Shown here piece after piece: positions 5,876 through 16,831 of a DNA stretch of 20,638 bases (within the stretch, counting starts at the first letter, position 1; every line of letters begins with the position of its first letter). The DNA is from Sphingomonadaceae bacterium (lineage in GTDB: Bacteria; Chloroflexota; UBA6077), in assembly GCA_050261575.1 (NCBI GenBank), contig JBLNDL010000070.1, forward strand, positions 62,001 through 82,638, written 5' to 3'. The notes below the pieces were generated by a model. It was not told where the DNA came from. It saw only the letters and a program-made list of their open reading frames with translations, and did not search any database. Position numbers and translations under genes: made by a program.

Positions 5876-6495
5876 CGCCAAGATGCTCCATCTGTGTCTT
5901 CTGCGCCTCCAGCGAACAGATCGCCTCCCGCTACTTCGAGCAGGCCAGGGAGCTTGGGCAGGAAATGGCCCGACGCGGCCACCAGTTGGTGTACGGCGGA
6001 GGTCGACTCGGTCTCATGGGGGCAGTAGCTCGGGCGGTTCACGACGCAGGCGGAAGGGTGATCGGCGTAATCCCCCGTCGGGCCGATTGGGCTGAGGCGG
6101 TCTACCAGGAGGCGGACGACCTGATCTACACCGCCACCATGAGGGAACGCAAGGCCATCATGGAGGAGAAAGCCGACGCATTCCTCGCCCTCCCCGGAGG
6201 CATCGGCACCCTGGAGGAGCTGCTGGAGATCATCACCCTCCGGCACCTGGGCTACCACGAGAAGCCCATTGTCATCCTGGATAGATACGGCTACTTCGAC
6301 CCCCTGATCGAGATGCTGGTAAGGTCGATCGTCGAGGGCTTCGGCCGACCCCGCCTCCGAGACATGTTCCACGTCGCCACCACGGTCACCGACGCCCTTC
6401 ATCACATCGAGACCTACGCAGCCCCTCGAGAGAAGAAGGCCACGGCAACCGAGGTGCTTGAGAGCACGACGGAACCGGGAGCCGACCAAAGCTGA
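5872..6495 (+). CDS. LOG-family nucleotide phosphoribohydrolase (TIGR00730 Rossmann-fold protein)
   Basis: ICVFCASS, LVYGGGxxGLMG, MxERK and PGGIGTLEE motifs; ATGA overlap with the upstream gene. Confidence 0.95.
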   Translation: MTPRCSICVFCASSEQIASRYFEQARELGQEMARRGHQLVYGGGRLGLMGAVARAVHDAGGRVIGVIPRRADWAEAVYQEADDLIYTATMRERKAIMEEKADAFLALPGGIGTLEELLEIITLRHLGYHEKPIVILDRYGYFDPLIEMLVRSIVEGFGRPRLRDMFHVATTVTDALHHIETYAAPREKKATATEVLESTTEPGADQS

Positions 6496-6845
6496 GGGGT
6501 GAGGAGACCGCCGTCTCCCCTCCAAGACAGCGCGTAACACGACTCCTCCACCCAGCCAATACCCCCCACCCGGCTGGTCCCCTCCAAGCGACACGGCTCA
6601 CATGCGCCTCCCCTTCCGGATCGACTCTTCCCCTGCCGCACGAGTGTAACCGGGTCGCCGAACCACCTCCCTCTAAGCGGGTTTCTCCAGATGGAGCACA
6701 CGGTTCCGGCTAGAGAAGTCAGCATGGGCCAGAGATACCTCCTTAGCTCTTACCGTGGACTGCTTTCTGCGTTCAGACCCCCTCCACGGCTCCGCCGCCA
6801 GGAGTCGCTGGCCCGCAACCTCTCCTGCAGAAGGGGGTGCTACCA

Positions 6846-7883
6846 GTGAACGAAAGCCTCGAGGGGATGCGCCACAAGCTGGAAGGGCTATTCGACGCCG
6901 AGGACGGCTACACGGGGCCGATACTGCTCCTCGGTGTCCTGCTCCCCATGCTGGTGCTCGGACTCCTGATGCTGTCCCTGAGTGTGCTCGGCCCAGCCGG
7001 GGCGCCGCCGTCGGTACCCGACCCTCGCGGCCTTGGTCAGGGGAGCGCGATGTCCTCTCGCGCCGAGCTTGCCCCAAGCGTCCAGGATCTGGCCCAGGAA
7101 CTAGACCGAGCCATTGCGACTGTGGAGAACGGCAGATGGCTCATCGCCGATCGACTGGACGGGCTGAGAGAGAAGCTGACCGCTGAGCGCAGGGCCGTGC
7201 AAAGCATGGAAGCCATGCTTGAGGAAATGAAGCAGGACGCCAACGCACACGCAGGCTCGAGCCCGCAGTCGGGCAACCTGCTGGTGAAGTATGGCGCCCT
7301 CCAGCGAGGCTACGAGAGTTGGCAAGCCGCAGCGACCGACCTCAACGCGGTCGCCGCGGAGATGGAGTCCGCGCTGGCCCTGGTGCAGGAGCACTCCGCG
7401 GAGGCGGCACAAGCCTCCCATCGACTCGCCGTAACGCTCCAGCAGGCCGGGGAGGCTCATCAGCTTCACCCGGTGCCCGGCGACGAGAAAGCGCCCATCG
7501 CAGAGTATGTCTCGGTAGCGCGCATCTCCACCCAAGAGCTTTCATCGACCAGGGCAGCAGACGCCCAGCTCGTGCAGAAGGCTAACGAGCTGTTGGGACA
7601 GGGCAGGGCCCTGGCGGAAGCTGCCCAACAGGCAGCTAGGTCCGTCCATCGGCCTCAGTTCCGCATGGGCTTCAAGCTGCTGGCCGATCAAATCCCCACT
7701 GTCGTGGGAGAGCCGATGGAGGACGAGCACCCGGACCCGGCCACCGGCAACATGGTCCAGCGCACCACTCGAGGCATGATGACGTGGCGAAAAGCCGACA
7801 ACTGGACCGGGTTCACAGACGGAGTCCGAGTCTGGTACCTGACTCCCTCCGGCGTCCAGGTGCAGCCCGACGAGGGGAGATGA
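6846..7883 (+). CDS. Hypothetical membrane-anchored coiled-coil protein with a C-terminal extracellular module (F.xGFK.L....P.VVG.P.E.E...Q.TTxG...WRKADNWTxFTDG)
   Basis: TM segment near the N-terminus, a long Ala/Glu/Gln/Leu-rich helical region and a compact C-terminal domain. SD-like GGGGGT precedes GTG 6846 (6837 is an alternative). Stop overlaps the next ATG. Confidence 0.8.
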   Translation: MNESLEGMRHKLEGLFDAEDGYTGPILLLGVLLPMLVLGLLMLSLSVLGPAGAPPSVPDPRGLGQGSAMSSRAELAPSVQDLAQELDRAIATVENGRWLIADRLDGLREKLTAERRAVQSMEAMLEEMKQDANAHAGSSPQSGNLLVKYGALQRGYESWQAAATDLNAVAAEMESALALVQEHSAEAAQASHRLAVTLQQAGEAHQLHPVPGDEKAPIAEYVSVARISTQELSSTRAADAQLVQKANELLGQGRALAEAAQQAARSVHRPQFRMGFKLLADQIPTVVGEPMEDEHPDPATGNMVQRTTRGMMTWRKADNWTGFTDGVRVWYLTPSGVQVQPDEGR

Positions 7884-10800
7884 GCGCCGAAGGAACCAGC
7901 CGTCTGTCGGTTCGTCACTCCGGGGTGCCCGGTCGGATCAGATTCTCCGTCGTGGGACTGCGACGCAACCCGGCGTTGAAGGCTGCGGTCGAGGCGGCCT
8001 TCAACGACCTGGCGGGGGTACGCTCCGCGTCGGCGAACCCGCTGACGGGCAACGTCCTCGTCCACTACGACCCGCACCGTTGGGAAGGCTCCGATCTGAT
8101 GAGGGAGGCGGGGCGCAGGTTGAGTGGCGTCACGGGTCCACGAGCCCCCGACGTTTCCCCCCACGACGGAGCGCAAGCCACGACCAGGAATCCGGCATCT
8201 GGTGCCCGACCGAACCCACCGGCCTGGCACGCCCTCCCCGCTCAGGAGGCGGTAGCCCTGCTGGGCGCAGATCCTGAGAGGGGGCTCTCCAACGAGGAGG
8301 TGGAGCAGCGGCTGAGGCGCTTCGGGCCTAATCGTCTGCCGGAGCCGAAGGAGCCCTCCCTCGCAGAGCTGCTCGTCAGGCAGATACTCAACGCCCCAAC
8401 GGTGCTGCTGGGCGTCGGCGCTGCGCTCTCCCTCGCCATCGGGGCTGTCGTCGATTCCCTGCTGATCGGTGGCGTCCTGGTGGCCAACGCGGTCATCGGT
8501 GCGACCACCGAGCATTCAGGACAGAGAGCGATCGCGGCACTCCGCCGTGCCGCCCCGCTCCGCGCTCGAGTGGTCCGGAACGGCGTCACTGAGATCGTCG
8601 ATGCCCACAGGCTGGTACCTGGCGACACCATCCTGCTGCTGCCCGGCGACCCGGTCCCCGCCGACGCTCGCCTGCTGGAGGCTCACCGGCTGACAGTCGA
8701 GGAATCGGCCCTCACTGGAGAGTCCCGGCCCGTGGAGAAGTCGCCCGAGCCGGTGGAGCCCGCCGCCGCGCTGGCGGACCGGCGATCCATGGTTCACAGG
8801 GGAACCACTGTCACGGGGGGTCGCGGGAAGGCCGTCGTCGTGGCCACAGGTGGGAGAACGGCCATCGGAGAGTTGCACCTCCTGGCGGCCAAGGCGGCAC
8901 CCCCGCCCACACCCCTCAAGCGAGACCTTGCGCGGATCGGTCGGCAGCTAGCCGCCGCGTCGGCCGCCGTCTCCCTGGGCGTGATGGGACTCTCGCTGCT
9001 ACGAGGCACGCCCTTGTCGCAGGCCGTCACGACCGCCGTCGCCCTGGCCGTGGCCGCGATGCCCGAGGGGCTCCCCACCGCCGCGACCACCGTCCTCGCC
9101 CTCAGCTCCGGCCGAATGAGGCAGAAGGGGACGCTGATCCGCTCCCTCCACGCGGCGGAAGCCCTCGGATCGGTCACCGTCGTCTGCGCCGACAAGACGG
9201 GGACGATCACCGAGAACCGGATGTCGGTGGGCGAGATACTGGTGGACACACGGAGGATCTGGGTCTCCGGCCCCGCCCTCTCGACATCCGGCGCCCTGTA
9301 CAGCGATGGTCGGAGGATACTGCCCGATGGCGATCCCGCCCTGCGGGAGTTGCTCATAATCGGAGTGCTATGCTCCGACGCCGAGATCGCCGCCCAGCAC
9401 GACGCCGAGATCACGATCGACGGCTCCCCCACCGAGGGCGCTCTCCTGGTGGCTGCCCTCAAGGGGGGCCTGCGGGTGGACGACCTGCGGCAACGCTATC
9501 CACGCATCGACCGTCGCGACCGAGTCGCAGGGCGACGCCACATGATCACCGTCCACAGAGGGGAAGAAGGGTTGTTCGCCCTCGCCAAGGGGGCTCCGGA
9601 CGAACTCTTGGAGATCTGCGATCGGGTGCTGGCCGGAGGGGAGATCCGGCATCTACACCCGGAGAGAAGGGCCGAGTTCAGCCAGAAGAACGCCGAGATG
9701 GCAGGAAAGGCCATGCGGGTGCTGGCTTTCGCCCGCCGGGCCATACCAGAAGGCTACAGCGAGGCGGACCTCTCCAGCGGCTTCATCCTGTGGGGTTTGG
9801 TGGGGCTGACCGATCCCATTCGCCCGGGGGTGCCGGCGGCGGTGCGAGCCCTGCATCGGGCCGGTATTCGAACCGTCATGATCACGGGGGACCAGGCTGC
9901 GACGGCCGAGGCCGTCGCCCGCCAACTGGGGCTTCCCCGGAGGGGACCGCTCCACGTCCTCGAGGCGGGCGACCTATCTGAGATGGACCCGGAGGTGCTG
10001 CGCGGTCTGGTGAGGGACGTGGAGGTGTTCGCTAGGACCCCGCCCGAGATGAAGCTGGCCATCGTCCAGGCCCTCCAGGCCAACGGCGAGGTGGTGGCGA
10101 TGACGGGGGATGGGGTGAACGACGCCCCGGCCCTCCGAGCGGCCGACGTGGGGGTCGCCATGGGTGAGCGCGGCACCGAATTGGCTCGAGAGATCGCCGA
10201 CGTGGTGCTGTCCACCGACGACTTCACTCGAATGGTGGATGCGGTCGAGGAAGGACGGTTGGTCAGAGCCAACGTTCGACGCATGCTGCACTACCTGCTC
10301 TCCACGAACGGCAGCGAGGTGTGGGCGGTCACCGCGGCCGTGGCGCTCGGATTGCCCGCTCCCCTCACTCCGGGACAGTTGTTGTGGCTGAACTTGATCT
10401 CAGATCTCACCCCGGCCTTGGGGCTCGCCACGGAGCCGCAGGACCCGGATCTCATGGTGCAGCCGCCCCGCGACCCGGCGGAACCGATCATCCCGCCTTT
10501 CCTCCAGCGCCGCATCCTGGGAGAATCGGCCGCCCTCGCCGCCGGATCGCTTTCGGCCTACGGGTTGGGTACCCTCCGCCACGGCCGGGGCCAGATGGCC
10601 CAGAGCATGGCTTTCTGGAGCCTGGCCCTGGCGGATCTGCTGCACGTCGCCCTGGCGAGATCCGGCGCCCGGCCAGCTCTGGGCTACGAGCGGGCGGTCA
10701 GCCGCTCGCTGGCACTCAGCGTCGGCATCTCGGGGCTCCTGCAACTGGGAGTGCTGCTGCTCCGGCCCCTCCAGAGGCTGCTGGGCAGCAGCCCGCTCGG

Positions 10801-10945
10801 CTTCGTCGACACCATCATCTCGCTGGTGGCCGGCGTCACCCCCATCCTCGCCATCGAGGCACAACGCAGATCGAGCCCGTTTGCCCTTCCCCCTCCGAGT
10901 GAGATCGGGGCTGGCGGCCGGCAACCGCTGAAGGAGGCAGCATGA
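7880..10945 (+). CDS. Cation-transporting P-type ATPase (P2A/Ca2+-type signature) with N-terminal Cys-less HMA-like domain
   Basis: LTGES, AMPEGLP, CADKTGT, KGAP, DP.RP, MITGD, MTGDGVNDAPAL, LSTNxSE and LWLNLISD motifs. Start at ATG 7880 (SD GAGGGG; ATGA overlap), not 7784. Confidence 0.93.
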   Translation: MSAEGTSRLSVRHSGVPGRIRFSVVGLRRNPALKAAVEAAFNDLAGVRSASANPLTGNVLVHYDPHRWEGSDLMREAGRRLSGVTGPRAPDVSPHDGAQATTRNPASGARPNPPAWHALPAQEAVALLGADPERGLSNEEVEQRLRRFGPNRLPEPKEPSLAELLVRQILNAPTVLLGVGAALSLAIGAVVDSLLIGGVLVANAVIGATTEHSGQRAIAALRRAAPLRARVVRNGVTEIVDAHRLVPGDTILLLPGDPVPADARLLEAHRLTVEESALTGESRPVEKSPEPVEPAAALADRRSMVHRGTTVTGGRGKAVVVATGGRTAIGELHLLAAKAAPPPTPLKRDLARIGRQLAAASAAVSLGVMGLSLLRGTPLSQAVTTAVALAVAAMPEGLPTAATTVLALSSGRMRQKGTLIRSLHAAEALGSVTVVCADKTGTITENRMSVGEILVDTRRIWVSGPALSTSGALYSDGRRILPDGDPALRELLIIGVLCSDAEIAAQHDAEITIDGSPTEGALLVAALKGGLRVDDLRQRYPRIDRRDRVAGRRHMITVHRGEEGLFALAKGAPDELLEICDRVLAGGEIRHLHPERRAEFSQKNAEMAGKAMRVLAFARRAIPEGYSEADLSSGFILWGLVGLTDPIRPGVPAAVRALHRAGIRTVMITGDQAATAEAVARQLGLPRRGPLHVLEAGDLSEMDPEVLRGLVRDVEVFARTPPEMKLAIVQALQANGEVVAMTGDGVNDAPALRAADVGVAMGERGTELAREIADVVLSTDDFTRMVDAVEEGRLVRANVRRMLHYLLSTNGSEVWAVTAAVALGLPAPLTPGQLLWLNLISDLTPALGLATEPQDPDLMVQPPRDPAEPIIPPFLQRRILGESAALAAGSLSAYGLGTLRHGRGQMAQSMAFWSLALADLLHVALARSGARPALGYERAVSRSLALSVGISGLLQLGVLLLRPLQRLLGSSPLGFVDTIISLVAGVTPILAIEAQRRSSPFALPPPSEIGAGGRQPLKEAA

Positions 10946-12123
10946 CTCAGCGGCGCTTCTTCACCTCTAGTTCGGTGCTACTGGGGCACCCCGATAAGCT
11001 GTGCGACAGGATCTCCGATGCCCTGGTGGACGCTCACCTTGCGGTGGACCCCACGGCCAGAGTCCGCGCGGAGGCCGCCGCGGCGGGCCAGGTCATCTTC
11101 TTGGCGACAGATGCATCCCTCCGGGGCGAGGTAGACGTCACGGGGGTGGTCAGGAGGGTTATCGCCGAGACGGGCTACTTTCCCCAGGACATGGATGCCG
11201 ATCGCTGCGCCATCCTCGCCCAGTCCAGCCTCATGACCCCGCCCTGGTCCAGGAGGCAGCCCTCAGTCCTGCAGCCACCCGAGAGACGGCTGGCCTCTGA
11301 GCAAACGACGGTCTTCGGGTACGCCTGCTCCGAGACGCCGGAGAGAATGCCGTTGCCGATCCAGTTGGCCCATCGGATCTCCACCACCATCGGCACATTG
11401 GCGCTTCAGAGGGCCATCCCGGGCCTGGGACCGGACGGCGACGTGCTGGTTACGGTGGAGTACGAGGACAACCGGCCAACCCGGATCGACACCATCATGG
11501 TCCAGCTACAGCACAGGGGAGAGCCACGGGACCTCGTGGAGGGACTGAAGACCATCGCGTTCGCCTCCATCTTCGACGGCATGTCGCTTGCGCCCGACAG
11601 TTCCACCCGCTTGCTAGTGAACCCCGGCGGCCCGCTCGAGGCGGCGGGGCCAGCGAGAGACGCCGGGCATACGGGCCGGAAGAACGCCGACGACACGTAC
11701 GGTGGCGCGGCTCGCCATGGCGGCCACGCCCTCAGCGGCAAGGATCCCAGCCGGCTGGATCGCTCCGCCAGCTACGCCGCCCGCCACGCGGCCAAGAACG
11801 TCGTAGCCGCCGGTCTCGCCTCCGAGTGTGAGATAATGCTATCCTACGCCATCGGAGAAGCACGCCCGACCACCGTCTCCGCCCGTACCTTCGGCACGGG
11901 CGTGCTCCAGGATGAACGGCTCTCGGAGATCATCGGCGAGGTCTTCGACCTGCGCCCCGGTCTCATCGAGGAGCAACTGCGCCTGCGGTGGCTCCCGCGA
12001 GAGCGAGGAGGGCGCTTCTACCAGCGGCTGGCCGTCGGAGGACAGTTCGGGCGTATGGACCTCGACTGCCCCTGGGAGAGGCTAGACGCGGTAGACGCCC
12101 TGCGGGACGCCCTGAAATCGTAG
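10942..12123 (+). CDS. metK: Methionine adenosyltransferase (SAM synthetase) homologue, divergent paralogue
   Basis: GHPDK, TGRK, DTYGG, SGKD.S..DRS.SY.AR..AKNVVAAGLA and C-terminal FGR...PWE motifs. Full length, SD AAGGAGG. Several canonical active-site residues are substituted. Confidence 0.85.
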   Translation: MTQRRFFTSSSVLLGHPDKLCDRISDALVDAHLAVDPTARVRAEAAAAGQVIFLATDASLRGEVDVTGVVRRVIAETGYFPQDMDADRCAILAQSSLMTPPWSRRQPSVLQPPERRLASEQTTVFGYACSETPERMPLPIQLAHRISTTIGTLALQRAIPGLGPDGDVLVTVEYEDNRPTRIDTIMVQLQHRGEPRDLVEGLKTIAFASIFDGMSLAPDSSTRLLVNPGGPLEAAGPARDAGHTGRKNADDTYGGAARHGGHALSGKDPSRLDRSASYAARHAAKNVVAAGLASECEIMLSYAIGEARPTTVSARTFGTGVLQDERLSEIIGEVFDLRPGLIEEQLRLRWLPRERGGRFYQRLAVGGQFGRMDLDCPWERLDAVDALRDALKS

Positions 12124-12181
12124 GGCAACCACCCCCAACCATGCCGGAAGAGACGGCTCCGGCTGCGAGGGAGCAGCAACA

Positions 12182-12586
12182 GTGTCGGGCACGTCAGAGA
12201 GCCGCAACGTGGGCAGCCACCAGACGATCGCCGATGATCCCGCCTTCAACCAGCAGGTCTACGAGATCGTGGCCCGAATACCCAGGGGCAAGGTGACGAC
12301 CTACGGCGCCATCGCCGAGGCCCTGGGCGACAGGCGGAAAGCCCGCGAGGTCGGCTGGGCCCTCTACGCCAAGCCCAGGGATGTCGATGCACCCGCCCAC
12401 AGAGTCATCAATCGGGAGGGGAAGCTCACCGGTGGGTGGGCTTTCGGCAGCCCTGACGTGCAGCGCGGCCTGCTCGAGGCCGAGGGTGTTACCTTCCTGC
12501 CGGATGATCGTGTAGATCTGCGAAAGCACCTCTGGAAGCCCGAGGGATGCGCCTCCGGCGAGGAGGGCCAGCCCCGCCTCTTCTGA
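12182..12586 (+). CDS. MGMT-family alkyltransferase-like (ATL) DNA-binding protein lacking the catalytic Cys
   Basis: FNQQVYEIVARIPRGKVTTYGAIA...AREVGWAL...PAHRVIN..G.L...Q..LLEAEGV; PCHR is replaced by PAHR. Confidence 0.9.
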   Translation: MSGTSESRNVGSHQTIADDPAFNQQVYEIVARIPRGKVTTYGAIAEALGDRRKAREVGWALYAKPRDVDAPAHRVINREGKLTGGWAFGSPDVQRGLLEAEGVTFLPDDRVDLRKHLWKPEGCASGEEGQPRLF

Positions 12587-12615
12587 GAGGCCCTGACAGA
12601 TCCAAGGAACACCCA

Positions 12616-13335
12616 TTGGCATCGCTGCAACGAGACCTAGACGGATCCAACTCCCAGGGGAACCCCTCTCGACCACGGAGGCGGCCTCTTCGCTTGCTCC
12701 TGCTGGGGCTCGCCCTGGCCTGCCTGCTCGCGGGCGCGGGTGCGGTGGTGCCCGCCCTGTGGGTCTACCTGGCGGGGCAGCAGGGCATATACGACGATCC
12801 CGCTCAGGTCCCCCAGATGCCGGTGGCGATCGTCTTTGGAGCGGGATTGAACCCCGACGGGAGTCCCAGTTGGATGCTGGCGGATCGAGTCGACGCGGCT
12901 GTGGCACTGCACAAAGAGGGCAAGGTGCGCCGGATCCTGATGACCGGTGACAACAGCTCGGTGGGCTACAACGAGGTTGCGGCGATGAAGCGGCGCGCCG
13001 TCGAGCAAGGGGTGCCTCAGGAACTGGTCAACCTGGACTACGCCGGATTCCGGACCTACGACAGTTGCTACCGGGCAAAGTCCATCTTCGGCATCGATCA
13101 GGCGGTCCTCGTCACGCAGCGATACCACCTGCCGCGCGCCCTTTTCCTGGCCCGGTCCTTCGGCATCCAGGCGGTGGGGCTTGCCGCCGGACGCGACCGA
13201 TATCCCCGTCAGGAGTATTACGATATGCGCGAGGCGGTCGCCCTGTCGATGGCCTGGTACGAGGTGATGCTCCTGCGCCCCTTACCCCGCTACCTGGGAG
13301 AGCCGGTGGACCTGGAGCTTCAGAACCGGGAGTAA
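12616..13335 (+). CDS. SanA/YdcF/ElyC-like DUF218 membrane protein
   Basis: AIVFGAG, LADRVD.A..L, ILMTGDN...YNE, DYAGFRTYDSCYRA, VTQ.YHLPRA and REA motifs. SD AAGGA precedes TTG 12616. Confidence 0.9.
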   Translation: MASLQRDLDGSNSQGNPSRPRRRPLRLLLLGLALACLLAGAGAVVPALWVYLAGQQGIYDDPAQVPQMPVAIVFGAGLNPDGSPSWMLADRVDAAVALHKEGKVRRILMTGDNSSVGYNEVAAMKRRAVEQGVPQELVNLDYAGFRTYDSCYRAKSIFGIDQAVLVTQRYHLPRALFLARSFGIQAVGLAAGRDRYPRQEYYDMREAVALSMAWYEVMLLRPLPRYLGEPVDLELQNRE

Positions 13336-13352
13336 ACCCAGAGATGGATCCC

Positions 13353-14147
13353 TCACCGTCTCCAGGGCAGCCTCGGATGGATCAAGTTGGCGCGCACGAG
13401 CAGATCGGTATCGGCCAGGATCGTCTGGACAGGCCCATCCGCTATTGGCCGCCGCTCCCGGTCCCCGAAGACGACGGCCCGAACCCCCACCTCTCTCGCC
13501 ACCTCTAGCTCCTGGGTGGTAGTCACGACGGTTCTCCCCTCCCCGCCCAGCCGAAGGATGAGGTCGATCAGCACCGCCTTGCTTCGGGGATCGAGGCTGG
13601 CCGTCGGCTCGTCCAGCAGCAGCAGCTCCGGGTCCACCGCGAGCACCGTCGCTATCGCCGCCCGCTTCTTCTCCCCCTCCGACAGCTCGTAAGGTGCGCG
13701 TTGGGCCAGATCTGCGATCTCCATCAGCTCCAGCGCCTCCTCCACCCTGCGGTTGACTTCGGCTGGATCCCAACCCAACTGGAGCGGCCCGAAGGCTACG
13801 TCGTCCCACACGGTGGGCGAGAACAACTGAACGTCGGAGTCCTGGAAAACCAGCCCCACCCGACGATGCAGCCGACGCGAGGCGCCGATATCGTCGGCAA
13901 CTCGGGTGATGTCCTCCCCGAAAGCCTCGATCCGCCCGGAACTGGGATGGAGCAGTCCGTCCATGATCTTCAACAGGGTGGACTTGCCGCAGCCGTTCGC
14001 TCCCAGGATCACCACCCGCTCACCCAGAGCCACGGACAGATCCACCGAGTCCACGGCTGGGTACCGTCCCAGGTAGCTGTAGGACACCCCCTCCAGACGC
14101 AGCACTATCTCGGCCTTGCCGACGGCAACCTCAGAATCCACCTGCAC
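13353..14147 (-). CDS. cbiO: ECF transporter ATPase component (CbiO/NikO)
   Basis: Walker A GANGCGKST, Q-loop VFQDSDVQLF.PTV.DDVAFGP, signature LSEGEKKR, Walker B LLLLDEPT. Confidence 0.92.
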   Translation of the reverse strand: MQVDSEVAVGKAEIVLRLEGVSYSYLGRYPAVDSVDLSVALGERVVILGANGCGKSTLLKIMDGLLHPSSGRIEAFGEDITRVADDIGASRRLHRRVGLVFQDSDVQLFSPTVWDDVAFGPLQLGWDPAEVNRRVEEALELMEIADLAQRAPYELSEGEKKRAAIATVLAVDPELLLLDEPTASLDPRSKAVLIDLILRLGGEGRTVVTTTQELEVAREVGVRAVVFGDRERRPIADGPVQTILADTDLLVRANLIHPRLPWRR

Positions 14148-14150
14148 CTC

Positions 14151-14999
14151 TCAAGCCATCCAAGAATCGGCCAGCAATAGTCCCGCGGCGAGCACCACTG
14201 ATAGCGCCAGGAAGAACCGGTCCCCATCCCGCATCCTCGGGGGGCGGCTCGAGCGGATCTCCCCACCGAAACCGCGGGCCTCCATCGCGAGCAGTACGTC
14301 GGTGCTCATCTTCATGGAGCGACTAGCCAGGGTACCGGCTGCAGCGGCCGCCCAACGACGCTGCTCCGCGCCCGAGGTCTCGCCCACCGTGCGGCTCGCT
14401 CGGGCCTGGAAGAGGCTGTTGGCGGATCTCAGGAAGAGGAAGAGGTAACGATAGGTCATCGCCAGCACCACCAGGAAGCTTTCGGGCACCCGAAGCACCC
14501 GCAGCGCCGCCAGCAGGTCGGTCCAGCGGGTCGTGGTGACCAGCAGTAGCGCAATGGCGACGGATGTCCCCACCCGCGACACGAAGAGCAGGACGCTGGC
14601 AAGCCCGTTATCGGTCACGACCAACGGGAGGGGCGGACCGCCCCACAACACGAGGAGGGGCGCACCCGGCAGCATCACCAACGAGGGGAACGCCACGAAC
14701 CCGGCGAAGAGGGGTATTCCCAGCCACACTCGCCTGGAGAACTCCCCCAAGGGGAGCCGAGAGGCCAGGCCCAGCAGCACCGTCACTACGTAGGCTGCCA
14801 CGACCGGCGGCAGGTGGCGAGCCAACCCCACGCCCACGAGCAGCAGGAGGGCCGCGGCAACCTTGGCACGCGGGTCGATCCCCTGCAGGAGGCCCGGTAG
14901 GCGCGCCTGCTCCTCGGTAAAGACTGCCCGCTCAAGCGATGCCGTTATCCCCGCCACCGTCTTGGCGACGAAGTCGCCACGATGACCGGCCCAGCCCAT
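14151..14999 (-). CDS. cbiQ: ECF transporter T component (CbiQ/NikQ)
   Basis: LQGIDPRAK, TTTRW.DLL.ALR.L.VP, MTYRYLF, ARASR and AMEARGF motifs. SD GGAGG 6 nt before ATG 14999. Confidence 0.92.
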   Translation of the reverse strand: MGWAGHRGDFVAKTVAGITASLERAVFTEEQARLPGLLQGIDPRAKVAAALLLLVGVGLARHLPPVVAAYVVTVLLGLASRLPLGEFSRRVWLGIPLFAGFVAFPSLVMLPGAPLLVLWGGPPLPLVVTDNGLASVLLFVSRVGTSVAIALLLVTTTRWTDLLAALRVLRVPESFLVVLAMTYRYLFLFLRSANSLFQARASRTVGETSGAEQRRWAAAAAGTLASRSMKMSTDVLLAMEARGFGGEIRSSRPPRMRDGDRFFLALSVVLAAGLLLADSWMA

Positions 15000-15056
15000 T
15001 CCCATCCTCCCCGCTGTCTCCAGCCCTTGACGCACGCGGCCGACGCCGGCCCATAC

Positions 15057-15153
15057 GTAGGGGCTGTGCCCGTGAGGCGGGCGAGCACAGACTCACGGGC
15101 ACGGTCGCGTCAAGCTGTGTATGCCAGGGGCAGACACACGGGTCCGCCCCTAC
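15057..15153. repeat. REP-like palindromic element(s) with GTAG ends
   Basis: Minus strand GTAGGGGCGGACCCGTGTGTCTGCCCC (15127-15153); inverted GTAGGGGC at 15057-15064; internal 11-bp inverted repeat GTGCCCGTGAG/CTCACGGGCAC. Confidence 0.7.
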
Positions 15154-15237
15154 AACCGCCCGCAGTCCCAGTCTGCTCCGCGCGCCAACGTGCATCGCTC
15201 CTTCCGGCCCGCGGCAGTCAGCCGCATCCCCAAACGG

Positions 15238-16257
15238 TCAAGGCAAGCGTCGAGTTGCCAGGAGGCGAGCGGCGAAGAAGAGGGCGAATATGATCCCTAT
15301 CCCGACGACGGCTGAGAGAATGTAAGCCGGCGCCTGCTGCAGGAAGGAGCCCTCCGCGGCGACCGCGGCCAACTGGTAGTCGGGCAGGGGCGCCCATCCC
15401 CACACGGAACCCGCCTGCTCGATTCCTGCCGGAATGTAGCCGACCATCTCCAGCAGCTCCTCGCCGCCCCACTCGAAATCGGCACTGCCGGGCGCCAGCA
15501 GCCCCAACGGAGTCAAAGTGACCATCAGCGCCAGCAGCGCCACCAAGGACCAGCCGGCCTTGCCCAGCCCCTGTCCGCGATCCACCCCCGATCCGACCCC
15601 GAGGAGCGAGGGATGGGTACGCAGCAGGTACGCTACGGCGAGAGCCGTCACCGCCGCCTCGGCGAAGCCCGCCAGGGTGAGGTGCACGGCGAGCATCGTG
15701 GGGAGAGTAACCTCCAGACCGTAGGGATTGTAGAGGGCACGACCTCCGTCGCTCCAGAGCAGGGGTTGGATGCCCAACTCCAAGCCGGTCAACAGGGCGG
15801 CCACGTTGATCCCCACGTAGCCGCCCACTGCCGCCGCCACGATGCGGCGTCTGGCCGAGGGCTTGTGTCCAGCCAACAGCCGGTACACCGCGTACCCCGA
15901 GAGCGGGAGTGCGATCCCAAGATTGAAGCAGTTTGCGCCGATTGCAGTAATGCCCCCGTCGCCGAAGAAGAGAGCCTGGATGATCAGGGCGGTGGATACC
16001 CCCACCACAGCGGCCCACGGACCCACGACGACCGCCATCAGGGTGCCGCCAACCGCATGAGCGGTGGTGCCACCTGGAACTGGGATGTTGAACATCTGCA
16101 CGGTGAAGCTGAAAGCGGCGAAGAGGGCGATCAGCGGCGCGCTCCGACCACGAAGCATGCTCTTCACCCTGCGGCTCGCGTGATACCAGAAGGGCGCCGC
16201 GGCTCCGTACGCCACCGCCACTGTCGCCGGGCTCAAATACCCATCGGGAATGTGCAT
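15238..16257 (-). CDS. cbiM: ECF transporter substrate component CbiM/NikM fused to a C-terminal PDGLE/NikN-like membrane domain
   Basis: Invariant N-terminus MHIPDGYLS after SD GAGGAG. PGGTTAH, QALFFGDGGITAIGAN motifs; C-terminal EWG..EL...GY.P.G....APLPDY. Confidence 0.93.
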   Translation of the reverse strand: MHIPDGYLSPATVAVAYGAAAPFWYHASRRVKSMLRGRSAPLIALFAAFSFTVQMFNIPVPGGTTAHAVGGTLMAVVVGPWAAVVGVSTALIIQALFFGDGGITAIGANCFNLGIALPLSGYAVYRLLAGHKPSARRRIVAAAVGGYVGINVAALLTGLELGIQPLLWSDGGRALYNPYGLEVTLPTMLAVHLTLAGFAEAAVTALAVAYLLRTHPSLLGVGSGVDRGQGLGKAGWSLVALLALMVTLTPLGLLAPGSADFEWGGEELLEMVGYIPAGIEQAGSVWGWAPLPDYQLAAVAAEGSFLQQAPAYILSAVVGIGIIFALFFAARLLATRRLP

Positions 16258-16321
16258 TTCCAACTCCTCTTCATGCCTGCCCTGAAGGGCGGTCGAACGG
16301 GAGTGCGCCGCTGCGCTCCAC

Positions 16322-16340
16322 GCTGCAACTGAGTTGCAGC
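16322..16340. promoter_or_regulatory. Putative Fur-family operator, copy 2
   Basis: Perfect 9-1-9 palindrome GCTGCAACT-G-AGTTGCAGC between the fur stop and the cbiM start. Confidence 0.75.
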
Positions 16341-16357
16341 CATTCCGTATGAAAGGG

Positions 16358-16831
16358 CTAACTGCTACGGCAAGCAGAGCAAAGTCCGAAGATCGGGTAG
16401 CTCTCCAGGTCGGCCTGGAAGCCGTGGAGGGCACGCAGCCCCGCCTGGAGCGTGACGGCGACGCCGTCGTCCAGGTCCAACAACTCCCCACAGCGGCGGC
16501 AAAGCAGATGGCTGTGGCGCCCGCGGGAGGCCGGCTCGTACTGTGCCCGCTCGTCCCCGCACTTGTGCTCGGTGATGAGCCCCAACTCCAGTAACAGGTC
16601 CAGCGTACGGTAGACCGTGGTCTTATTCACCTTCAGGTCGGGGTGATGCGCAGACACCTTTTCCAGGATGTGTTCAGCGCAGATGTGGCCCGGGCAGCCA
16701 AAGACCGCCTCGCATACCGCTTCCCGCTGGGGGGTGAGGCGCAGCCCGCGCTCCGCCAGCGCCGCGGCGACCATCTCCCGCTCCGGTAGACCGAATCCGT
16801 GCCACTGGTCGAAGCCGGTCGAAGTGCACAC
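16358..16831 (-). CDS. Fur-family metalloregulator (Zur/Nur-like)
   Basis: GLRLTPQR, H..AE.I, TTVYRTLDLL.ELGLI, HSHLLCRRC and terminal GLCSAC motifs. GTG 16831 has SD GGGAGG 8 nt upstream. Confidence 0.93.
   Translation of the reverse strand: MCTSTGFDQWHGFGLPEREMVAAALAERGLRLTPQREAVCEAVFGCPGHICAEHILEKVSAHHPDLKVNKTTVYRTLDLLLELGLITEHKCGDERAQYEPASRGRHSHLLCRRCGELLDLDDGVAVTLQAGLRALHGFQADLESYPIFGLCSACRSS

Follow-up and report, generated by a model that had tools for sequence, protein, structure and literature searches.

The gene at 10942-12123 on the forward strand of a 20,638-nt stretch of Chloroflexota DNA (hereafter the window, meaning the whole stretch analyzed) encodes a 393-aa paralogue of MetK, the methionine adenosyltransferase (MAT) that produces S-adenosylmethionine (SAM). 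This gene is translationally coupled to a P-type ATPase gene directly upstream, and it belongs to an old superfamily of ATPase-linked MetK paralogues that is dedicated to a P2A-type pump with a Cys-less HMA_2-like N-terminal domain. Judged from alignments, these paralogues have systematically replaced the gating loop and the residues that contact methionine and adenine, with the catalytic acid and the phosphate/metal ligands preserved except, in type A, for K165. An earlier note, made from the letters of this stretch, had described an intact MetK paralogue with a rewired active site and had listed a non-catalytic ligand-sensing partner among its possible roles. It overlooked the neighboring pump, a context that we judge to be decisive; the coupling to the ATPase and a pairing conserved across phyla therefore favor the partner option. 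Whether the protein is in fact an accessory partner of the pump, binding phosphate and metal and making no SAM, is, in our estimation, about an even call.

Gene, fold and active site of the MetK-like protein

The reading frame starts at an ATG and runs for 393 aa with no internal stop, and the opposite strand is closed, with stops throughout, in agreement with the earlier description of a full-length gene free of frameshifts. The Shine-Dalgarno sequence previously called strong is also present (GAAGGAGG, 10930-10937). It opens a coupling junction spanning 10930-10945 on the forward strand, in which the MetK-like ATG (10942-10944) overlaps the TGA stop codon of the ATPase (10943-10945) by 4 nt (ATGA, 10942-10945).

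All three MAT domains (PF00438, PF02772 and PF02773) were matched in the 393-aa protein by Pfam, with E values from 4e-23 to 4e-48. The NCBIfam equivalog model for metK, TIGR01034, scored 314.0 bits, barely above its cut-off of 309.4. Among solved structures the nearest relatives are bacterial MATs (E about 1e-90), and in the ESM Atlas the protein simply clusters with MATs. An AlphaFold2 model built from a 34-sequence alignment reached a predicted local distance difference test (pLDDT) score of 83.7 and a predicted template modeling (pTM) score of 0.86, and it superposed on solved MATs in Foldseek with TM scores of 0.80-0.87. Its low-confidence parts are confined to the gating loop (102-104) and to the 240-266 loop, a region that in solved MATs lies at the dimer interface.

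Homologues P0002-P0085 match the query at 60-88% identity over at least 97% of its length, and beyond P0085 the identity of full-length matches falls to 51% or less. We refer to this clade as type A; the close homologues of the query carry Chloroflexota source labels. To compare residues, we aligned the query and its homologues with E. coli K-12 MetK (from NC_000913) using MAFFT, numbering positions without Met1 and counting over 85 type-A rows. This alignment recovered every substitution that the earlier note had listed by eye. The query carries E8S, E55D, Q98M, I102W, K165D, R229P, F230L and K269R, its GAGDQG motif reads LASEQT (D118E, G120T) and its GGGAFSGKD motif reads GGHALSGKD (G260H, F262L). 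The ten residues that had been named as kept (H14, D16, K17, E42, D163, D238, R244, K245, K265 and D271) are indeed all present in the query. Of these, we take D16, K17, E42, R244, K245, K265 and D271 to be phosphate/metal (Mg/K/triphosphate) ligands of the E. coli enzyme.

Across the clade, at 60-88% identity, the same changes recur; they are no peculiarity of this strain. At the methionine site, E55D is found in 82/85 rows, Q98M in 73/85, I102W in 71/85 and K269R in 84/85. At the signature positions, D118E occurs in 79/85, G120T in 78/85 and F262L in 81/85, so the changes to both signature motifs, which had been noted in the query, are clade-wide. K165 is retained in none of the 85 rows, R229P is present in 72 and L241H in 78. 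Other positions vary within the clade: E8 is replaced by S in 57/85 and by N in 17/85; position 230 is L in 54 rows (including the query), F in 12 and W in 10; and position 238, D in the query, is N in 41/85 and D in 29/85. H14, D16, K17, D163, R244, K245, K265 and D271 are each invariant (85/85), and E42 is kept in 84/85. Most of the changes thus recur in 71-84 of the 85 members, a pattern far beyond chance. The 29-row comparison set placed beside type A contains a few odd residues because four of its rows (P0113, P0115, P0116 and P0119) are type-B paralogues, which are described below.

According to a published account of the E. coli enzyme (PMC3853416), His14 is the catalytic acid, Phe230 stacks on the adenine, and the ribose hydroxyls are held by Asp163 and Asp238. 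Methionine contacts Ile102 through its side chain, and it is held at its amino group by Asp238 and Glu55 and at its carboxylate by Gln98 and Lys269. Compared to canonical MetK (EC 2.5.1.6; E. coli, PDB 1fug/7ll3), to which it is about 40% identical, the MetK-like protein keeps the three-domain fold together with H14 and the seven ligand residues named above, and the loop GxTGRK...DTYGG...SGKDP...DRS is kept whole. It differs in having replaced E55, Q98, I102, K269, F230, R229, K165, the gating loop and both signatures, in carrying an 8-residue insertion, in being a non-housekeeping copy, and in its gene position behind a P-type ATPase.

The earlier note had asked whether the genome holds a second, canonical metK. 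One is present in this 3.7-Mb assembly of 103 contigs, on contig C93, scoring 596.4 bits against TIGR01034 with all motifs intact. The gene at 10942-12123 is therefore not the housekeeping enzyme, and the SAM of this genome is made by the separate canonical metK. We also observed a third MetK copy with canonical active-site residues (C37:358-1461, locus L002; 494.8 bits), which lies on a short contig and on a very long branch (1.1-1.5). Because the contamination estimate of the assembly is 4.76%, this copy may be a binning contaminant rather than a true second housekeeping gene. Of five type-B genomes tested, four likewise carry a canonical metK (480-619 bits) in addition to the paralogue (346-384 bits); in the remaining one, a 2.5-Mb metagenome-assembled genome, only the paralogue was found.

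All 17 type-A genes recovered as DNA are intact. Of the 136 pairs among them, 122 have 0.05 < dS < 2 by the Nei-Gojobori method. Across these pairs the ratio of nonsynonymous to synonymous substitution rates (dN/dS) has a median of 0.20 and reaches at most 0.43, and the closest informative pair gives 0.055. These values lie well below 1 and show purifying selection, and together with the intact genes they bear out the proposal that the gene is maintained and not decaying.

The partner pump and its linkage to the MetK-like gene

The upstream gene (7880-10945, forward strand) encodes a P2A-type cation ATPase resembling SPCA, LMCA1 and SERCA, in which DKTGT, PEGL, TNGSE, NLISD and TGDGVNDAPAL are intact. 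Its length is 1021-1053 aa depending on the start chosen; the longest reading frame begins at a GTG at 7784, and the probable start is the ATG at 7880, which is preceded by GAGGGGAG. Pfam recognizes Cation_ATPase_N, E1-E2_ATPase, Cation_ATPase, Hydrolase and Cation_ATPase_C, and the pump falls below every NCBIfam equivalog cut-off. Its closest relatives are SPCA1, Listeria LMCA1 and SERCA. The match to these Ca2+/Mn2+ P2A ATPases (SPCA1 8iww, LMCA1 6zhf) has an E value of about 1e-134 and includes DKTGT, PEGL and the ion-site residues N/E of transmembrane helix 5 (TM5) and N/D of TM6.

In contrast to those ATPases, the partner pump has a coupled gene for a soluble MAT-fold protein and carries a Cys-less HMA_2/HMA-like domain at its N terminus (7904-8086, forward strand), sometimes in two copies. 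The match to PF19991 is marginal (32.4 bits against a cut-off of 30). When aligned with 13 partner pumps, the domain shows the signature GRIR..V.GL...NPLTGNVLVHYDP, and no CxxC motif is present in it. An HMA_2-like N terminus was found in 8/9 full-length pumps scanned (the window, L094 and 6/7 others). All 26 aligned partner pumps keep DKTGT, (I/V/M)PEGL, TNxSE in TM5, NLxxD in TM6 and TGDG(V/I)ND. With their catalytic and ion-site motifs all conserved, the partner pumps look functional.

We considered and rejected a ferrosome (P1B-6 ATPase) cluster as the identity of this locus, as the pump has a P2 architecture (Cation_ATPase_N plus Cation_ATPase_C). We also note that two pumps lacking the partner gene (G018:C20:42115-45156 and G009:C164:58018-61002) each have one TAG inside the matched frame. 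Reading frames of 1125-1126 aa are nevertheless open there, and the TAG probably lies upstream of the true start.

Type A is rare. Five of 60 genomes of relatives hold a type-A gene, all in the order of the window (2/4 in its own family and 3/10 in family f5), one of them being the unpublished genome G037. When 400 other genomes from across the phylum were sampled evenly, only two contained type A, both already seen. Type A is thus restricted, among the genomes searched, to a single order of Chloroflexota. In the three relatives whose upstream sequence is available (L091, L092 and L094), the pump gene overlaps the start of the MetK-like gene by 4 nt. Metagenomes scanned with a C-terminal alignment specific to the clade gave 32 loci, and a pump is present wherever about 300 nt or more lie upstream. 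This holds as well for a distant subclade (L111-L115), whose MetK-like protein is 44% and whose pump is 36-38% identical. Scanning genome contigs with a full-length alignment instead returned mostly canonical metK, swamped by the shared GHPDKLCD pattern, and no type-A locus, but by chance it returned type-B loci.

To count the linkage, loci were classed by the 8-residue insertion alone and at least 1 kb of upstream sequence was required, leaving out 13 loci with less. A homologous ATPase lies directly upstream on the same strand in 34/34 insertion-bearing loci (33 distinct proteins). Without the insertion, a pump is directly upstream in 1/57 loci, namely L110, a type-A gene whose contig ends before the insertion is reached; for canonical metK the count is effectively 0/56. 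No MetK-like gene was seen that lacked the pump, whereas the pump was also seen on its own. The 4-nt stop/start overlap recurs at eight type-A loci (the window, L091, L092, L094, L097, L102, L104 and L109) and at eight type-B loci (L015, L021, L031, L038, L046, L051, L063 and L070). Other junctions between the two genes have gaps of 4-62 nt, extending to 475-588 nt in L111-L113. Moreover, the two proteins co-diverge: their p-distances correlate with r = 0.96 over 325 pairs (r = 0.93 within type B), and none of 2000 permutations in a Mantel test gave a correlation as high as that observed.

The paralogue superfamily and the surrounding genes

The 8-residue insertion (WLPRERGG in the query, residues 350-357; 11989-12012, forward strand) serves as the class marker in our alignments. 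It precedes the C-terminal FY...GG.GR motif and is common to type A, to type B and to group T, a small third group (P0089, P0091 and P0098). It is missing from the canonical rows P0121, P0122 and L060 and from all 56 canonical loci counted. Types A and B both depart from the canonical residue in 24 alignment columns.

Trees were built with FastTree (104 rows) and with IQ-TREE under LG+C20 (59 rows). The latter splits 20 canonical rows from 39 paralogues, the query among them, with a Shimodaira-Hasegawa-like approximate likelihood ratio (SH-aLRT) support of 99, and the split keeps a support of 94 after removal of 48 diagnostic columns. The stem of type A has a length of 0.97. These trees argue that the paralogues share one origin. 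When a profile of A, B and T was compared with 1.84 billion cluster representatives, the best 150 comprised the type-A representative, 17 insertion-bearing representatives, about four fragments and 100 canonical sequences; the superfamily therefore amounts to about 20 clusters at 50% identity.

Type B comprises 19 loci whose MetK-like protein carries E55R, Q98L/M/F, D238H, F262L and K269R. Its sources include Nitrosospira (e.g., Nitrosospira sp. Nsp14, L021), Rhodoplanes, Geobacteraceae, Desulfovibrio, Syntrophobacteraceae, Thermodesulfobacteriota, Nitrospirota, Binatia and one Leptolyngbyaceae cyanobacterium. Types A and B resemble each other in the insertion, in F262L and K269R, in the loss of Q98 and E55, in the HMA_2-type P2 pump directly upstream with its 4-nt overlap, and in falling on the same side of the tree. 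They differ in that they are only about 41-48% identical and in that type B has E55R and D238H instead of E55D and D238N/D, mostly keeps K165, E8 and F230, and has HMA_2 and repeat proteins added to its loci.

These additional type-B genes encode three kinds of protein. Full-length HMA_2 proteins that stand alone measure 157-194 aa and have a hydrophobic tail, and others of ~120 aa are encoded on the opposite strand. The third kind is a conserved repeat protein of ~230 aa, rich in Val, Gly and Ala. Small HMA_2 proteins, which have no Cys motif and are unnamed by NCBIfam, flank the pump/MetK-like pairs of L021, L031, L032, L034, L038, L051, L063, L067, L068, L070, L111, L113 and L114. The repeat protein lies directly upstream of the type-B pumps of L015, L031, L034, L037, L038, L063, L067 and L074 (e.g., L034:1623-2318) and is up to 77% identical between phyla. 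It matches no Pfam or NCBIfam family, and its ESM Atlas groups are 'hypothetical protein' clusters only. Near type-B pairs there is often a gene for CorA, MgtE, a Na/Ca exchanger, PhoU or else another HMA_2-type pump; the first three are Mg2+/Ca2+ transporters, and we count their presence in favor of the accessory-partner reading given below. From its gene content, the surroundings of type B look like an uncharacterized divalent-cation gene cluster. Type-A loci are without the standalone HMA_2 and repeat-protein genes of these clusters. The genome of the window does encode a standalone full-length HMA_2 protein (C70:4090-4602, locus L129; 170 aa, 80 bits). Its gene shares the contig of the pump, lies ~65 kb upstream and is followed by a YtfJ/GerW-like gene.

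Upstream of the pump, a 348-aa reading frame (6837-7883, forward strand) encodes a protein that is hydrophobic over a stretch at its N terminus and rich in Ala and Gln in its body. The TGA stop codon of this frame (7881-7883) overlaps the pump ATG at 7880, so it probably opens the operon, which may then consist of three genes together with the pump and the MetK-like gene. This frame is lineage-specific: it has only three homologues in a set of 5.8 billion proteins and no Pfam or NCBIfam match, it is unrelated to the reading frames upstream at other loci, and it is not conserved in other type-A loci. A promoter and terminator scan of 6400-12800 was blank, with the caveat that the consensus sequences used may not be those of the organism, and Rfam gave no match at the gathering threshold in the window and 11 loci.

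Downstream, 59 nt past the MetK-like stop, 12182-12586 (forward strand) encodes a 134-aa protein with the MGMT-family DNA-binding domain (PF01035). Alkyltransferases carry their catalytic Cys in a PCHRV motif, which here reads PAHRV; the protein would accordingly be alkyltransferase-like (ATL) and not an active methyltransferase. Genes for a DUF218/SanA-like protein and for cbiM-cbiQ-cbiO (an ECF cobalt transporter) follow at 12547-16491 and are also found at L091, L092, L107 and L130. Within the family they show synteny with the pump locus; at more distant loci they are not kept, so this linkage probably reflects neighborhood and not function.

Among longer MetK homologues, we further observed that many proteins of ~830-1240 aa (P0280, P0284, P0287 and others) are intein-interrupted canonical MetKs with LAGLIDADG/intein domains (PF14528 and PF14890). 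Where a source is named, they come from DPANN-type archaea (Aenigmarchaeota, Woesearchaeota and Nanoarchaeota).

Possible roles of the MetK-like protein

The case for an accessory partner, put above at about an even chance, rests on four observations: the same genomes carry a canonical metK, the paralogue has its obligate place behind the pump, the stop and start codons of the two genes usually overlap, and the two have co-diverged. On this reading, the protein would no longer make SAM and would act in the cytoplasm, produced in step with the pump. Its MetK fold has kept the residues for Mg2+/K+ and the triphosphate chain (H14, D16, K17, E42, R244, K245, K265 and D271), and with them it may bind, and perhaps hydrolyze, a metal-triphosphate ligand such as Mg-ATP or tripolyphosphate (PPPi). 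Binding of this ligand could let it modulate or serve the pump.

Several observations weigh against this proposal. The near-perfect retention of H14 and of the phosphate/metal ligands fits a working enzyme better than a passive regulator. Pump orthologues at 59-65% identity that also have the HMA_2-like domain occur without a downstream MetK-like gene in G001, G009 and G018, and G001, which is of the same family and 97% complete, has a syntenic locus (pump, DUF218 and TauE) with no MetK-like gene. The pump therefore does not need the partner, which is an add-on and not an obligate subunit. No fusion to an ATPase or HMA_2 domain was found among the 120 listed of 187 longer MetK homologues, which are intein-bearing or otherwise fused canonical MetKs, although this is weak evidence. 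Finally, the loci in our linkage counts are those returned by pattern scans and not a random sample, and relatives are not independent.

Because its catalytic residues are so well kept, the main rival to the accessory partner, and one nearly as likely, is a working enzyme with a changed substrate. Such an enzyme might cleave the C5'-O5' bond of a nucleoside triphosphate with a nucleophile other than methionine, or hydrolyze tripolyphosphate; it would be tied functionally to the pumped cation, for instance by needing or buffering it, with no stable pump complex. Taken as a whole, this is possible and no stronger than tentative. The invariance in type A of H14, D16, K17, R244, K245, K265, D271 and the ribose ligand D163 (85/85) speaks for it, as does their retention in types B and T and in insertion-bearing representatives. 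So do the slower evolution of the MetK-like protein compared to the pump (mean p-distance 0.45 vs 0.53) and the existence of the pump without the MetK-like gene. The methionine pocket also appears to be remodeled in a conserved way and not degraded (Q98M, I102W and L241H in type A; E55R and D238H in type B). However, the neighborhood offers no candidate substrate, and the pair has no further biosynthetic gene conserved next to it. No type-A row retains K165, and codon-overlap coupling across phyla suggests a fixed product ratio, which is more typical of complexes.

It is improbable that the protein is still a SAM synthetase, that is, a divergent isozyme co-expressed with the pump. It does pass the TIGR01034 cut-off (314 against 309.4), as type B does more comfortably (363-392 bits), and E55D and K269R are conservative changes. 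Archaeal MATs, moreover, hold the methionine carboxylate with different residues (PMC3853416). Against this, Q98, I102, F230, R229, K165, both signatures and the gating loop are replaced family-wide, type B has the opposite charge where the methionine amino group binds (E55R and D238H), and the same genomes have a canonical metK. The low metK model score and the broken signature motifs might also suggest a decaying or non-functional duplicate, an incipient pseudogene. Given the 17/17 intact type-A genes, the median dN/dS of 0.20, and a family that spans several phyla with its derived residues and genomic partner conserved, we regard decay as having next to no probability.

Returning to the accessory partner, we tentatively put forward a wider proposal, which as a whole we hold to be somewhat less probable than not. 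A MAT-fold protein would have been recruited as a dedicated soluble partner of a P2 pump, an accessory of a kind without a described counterpart. Its ancestral Mg2+/K+-triphosphate pocket would read or spend a nucleotide or polyphosphate signal and thereby gate divalent-cation transport. The module would be ancient, present in at least six bacterial phyla and mostly embedded in a larger, entirely uncharacterized cluster that also encodes small HMA_2 membrane proteins and a repeat protein.

A parallel in idea is the prozyme of trypanosomatid AdoMet decarboxylase (PMC6221367), an example of catalytically altered paralogues working as partners or regulators: there too, selection keeps an enzyme paralogue for something else than the reaction of its parent. 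The prozyme associates with an active paralogue of its own, whereas the partner of the MetK-like protein is an unrelated membrane pump and the phosphate/metal residues have not been lost. The literature searched, in which subscription journals are thinly covered and which included the review PMC10654040, holds no report of a MetK-like gene paired with a P-type ATPase.

MetK is usually regarded as a single, almost invariant housekeeping enzyme. Here, a selected offshoot keeps the phosphate residues without the methionine contacts and is linked to a pump gene. As every paralogue tested passes the metK equivalog cut-off, these proteins are expected to be annotated as 'methionine adenosyltransferase', and metabolic reconstructions may then credit them with SAM synthesis. 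For the biology of P-type ATPases, our results indicate an unstudied pump subfamily, with a P2A core and a Cys-less HMA_2 domain, that has a soluble partner gene of enzyme origin. As type B occurs in Nitrosospira sp. Nsp14, which is in culture, the question is open to direct testing.

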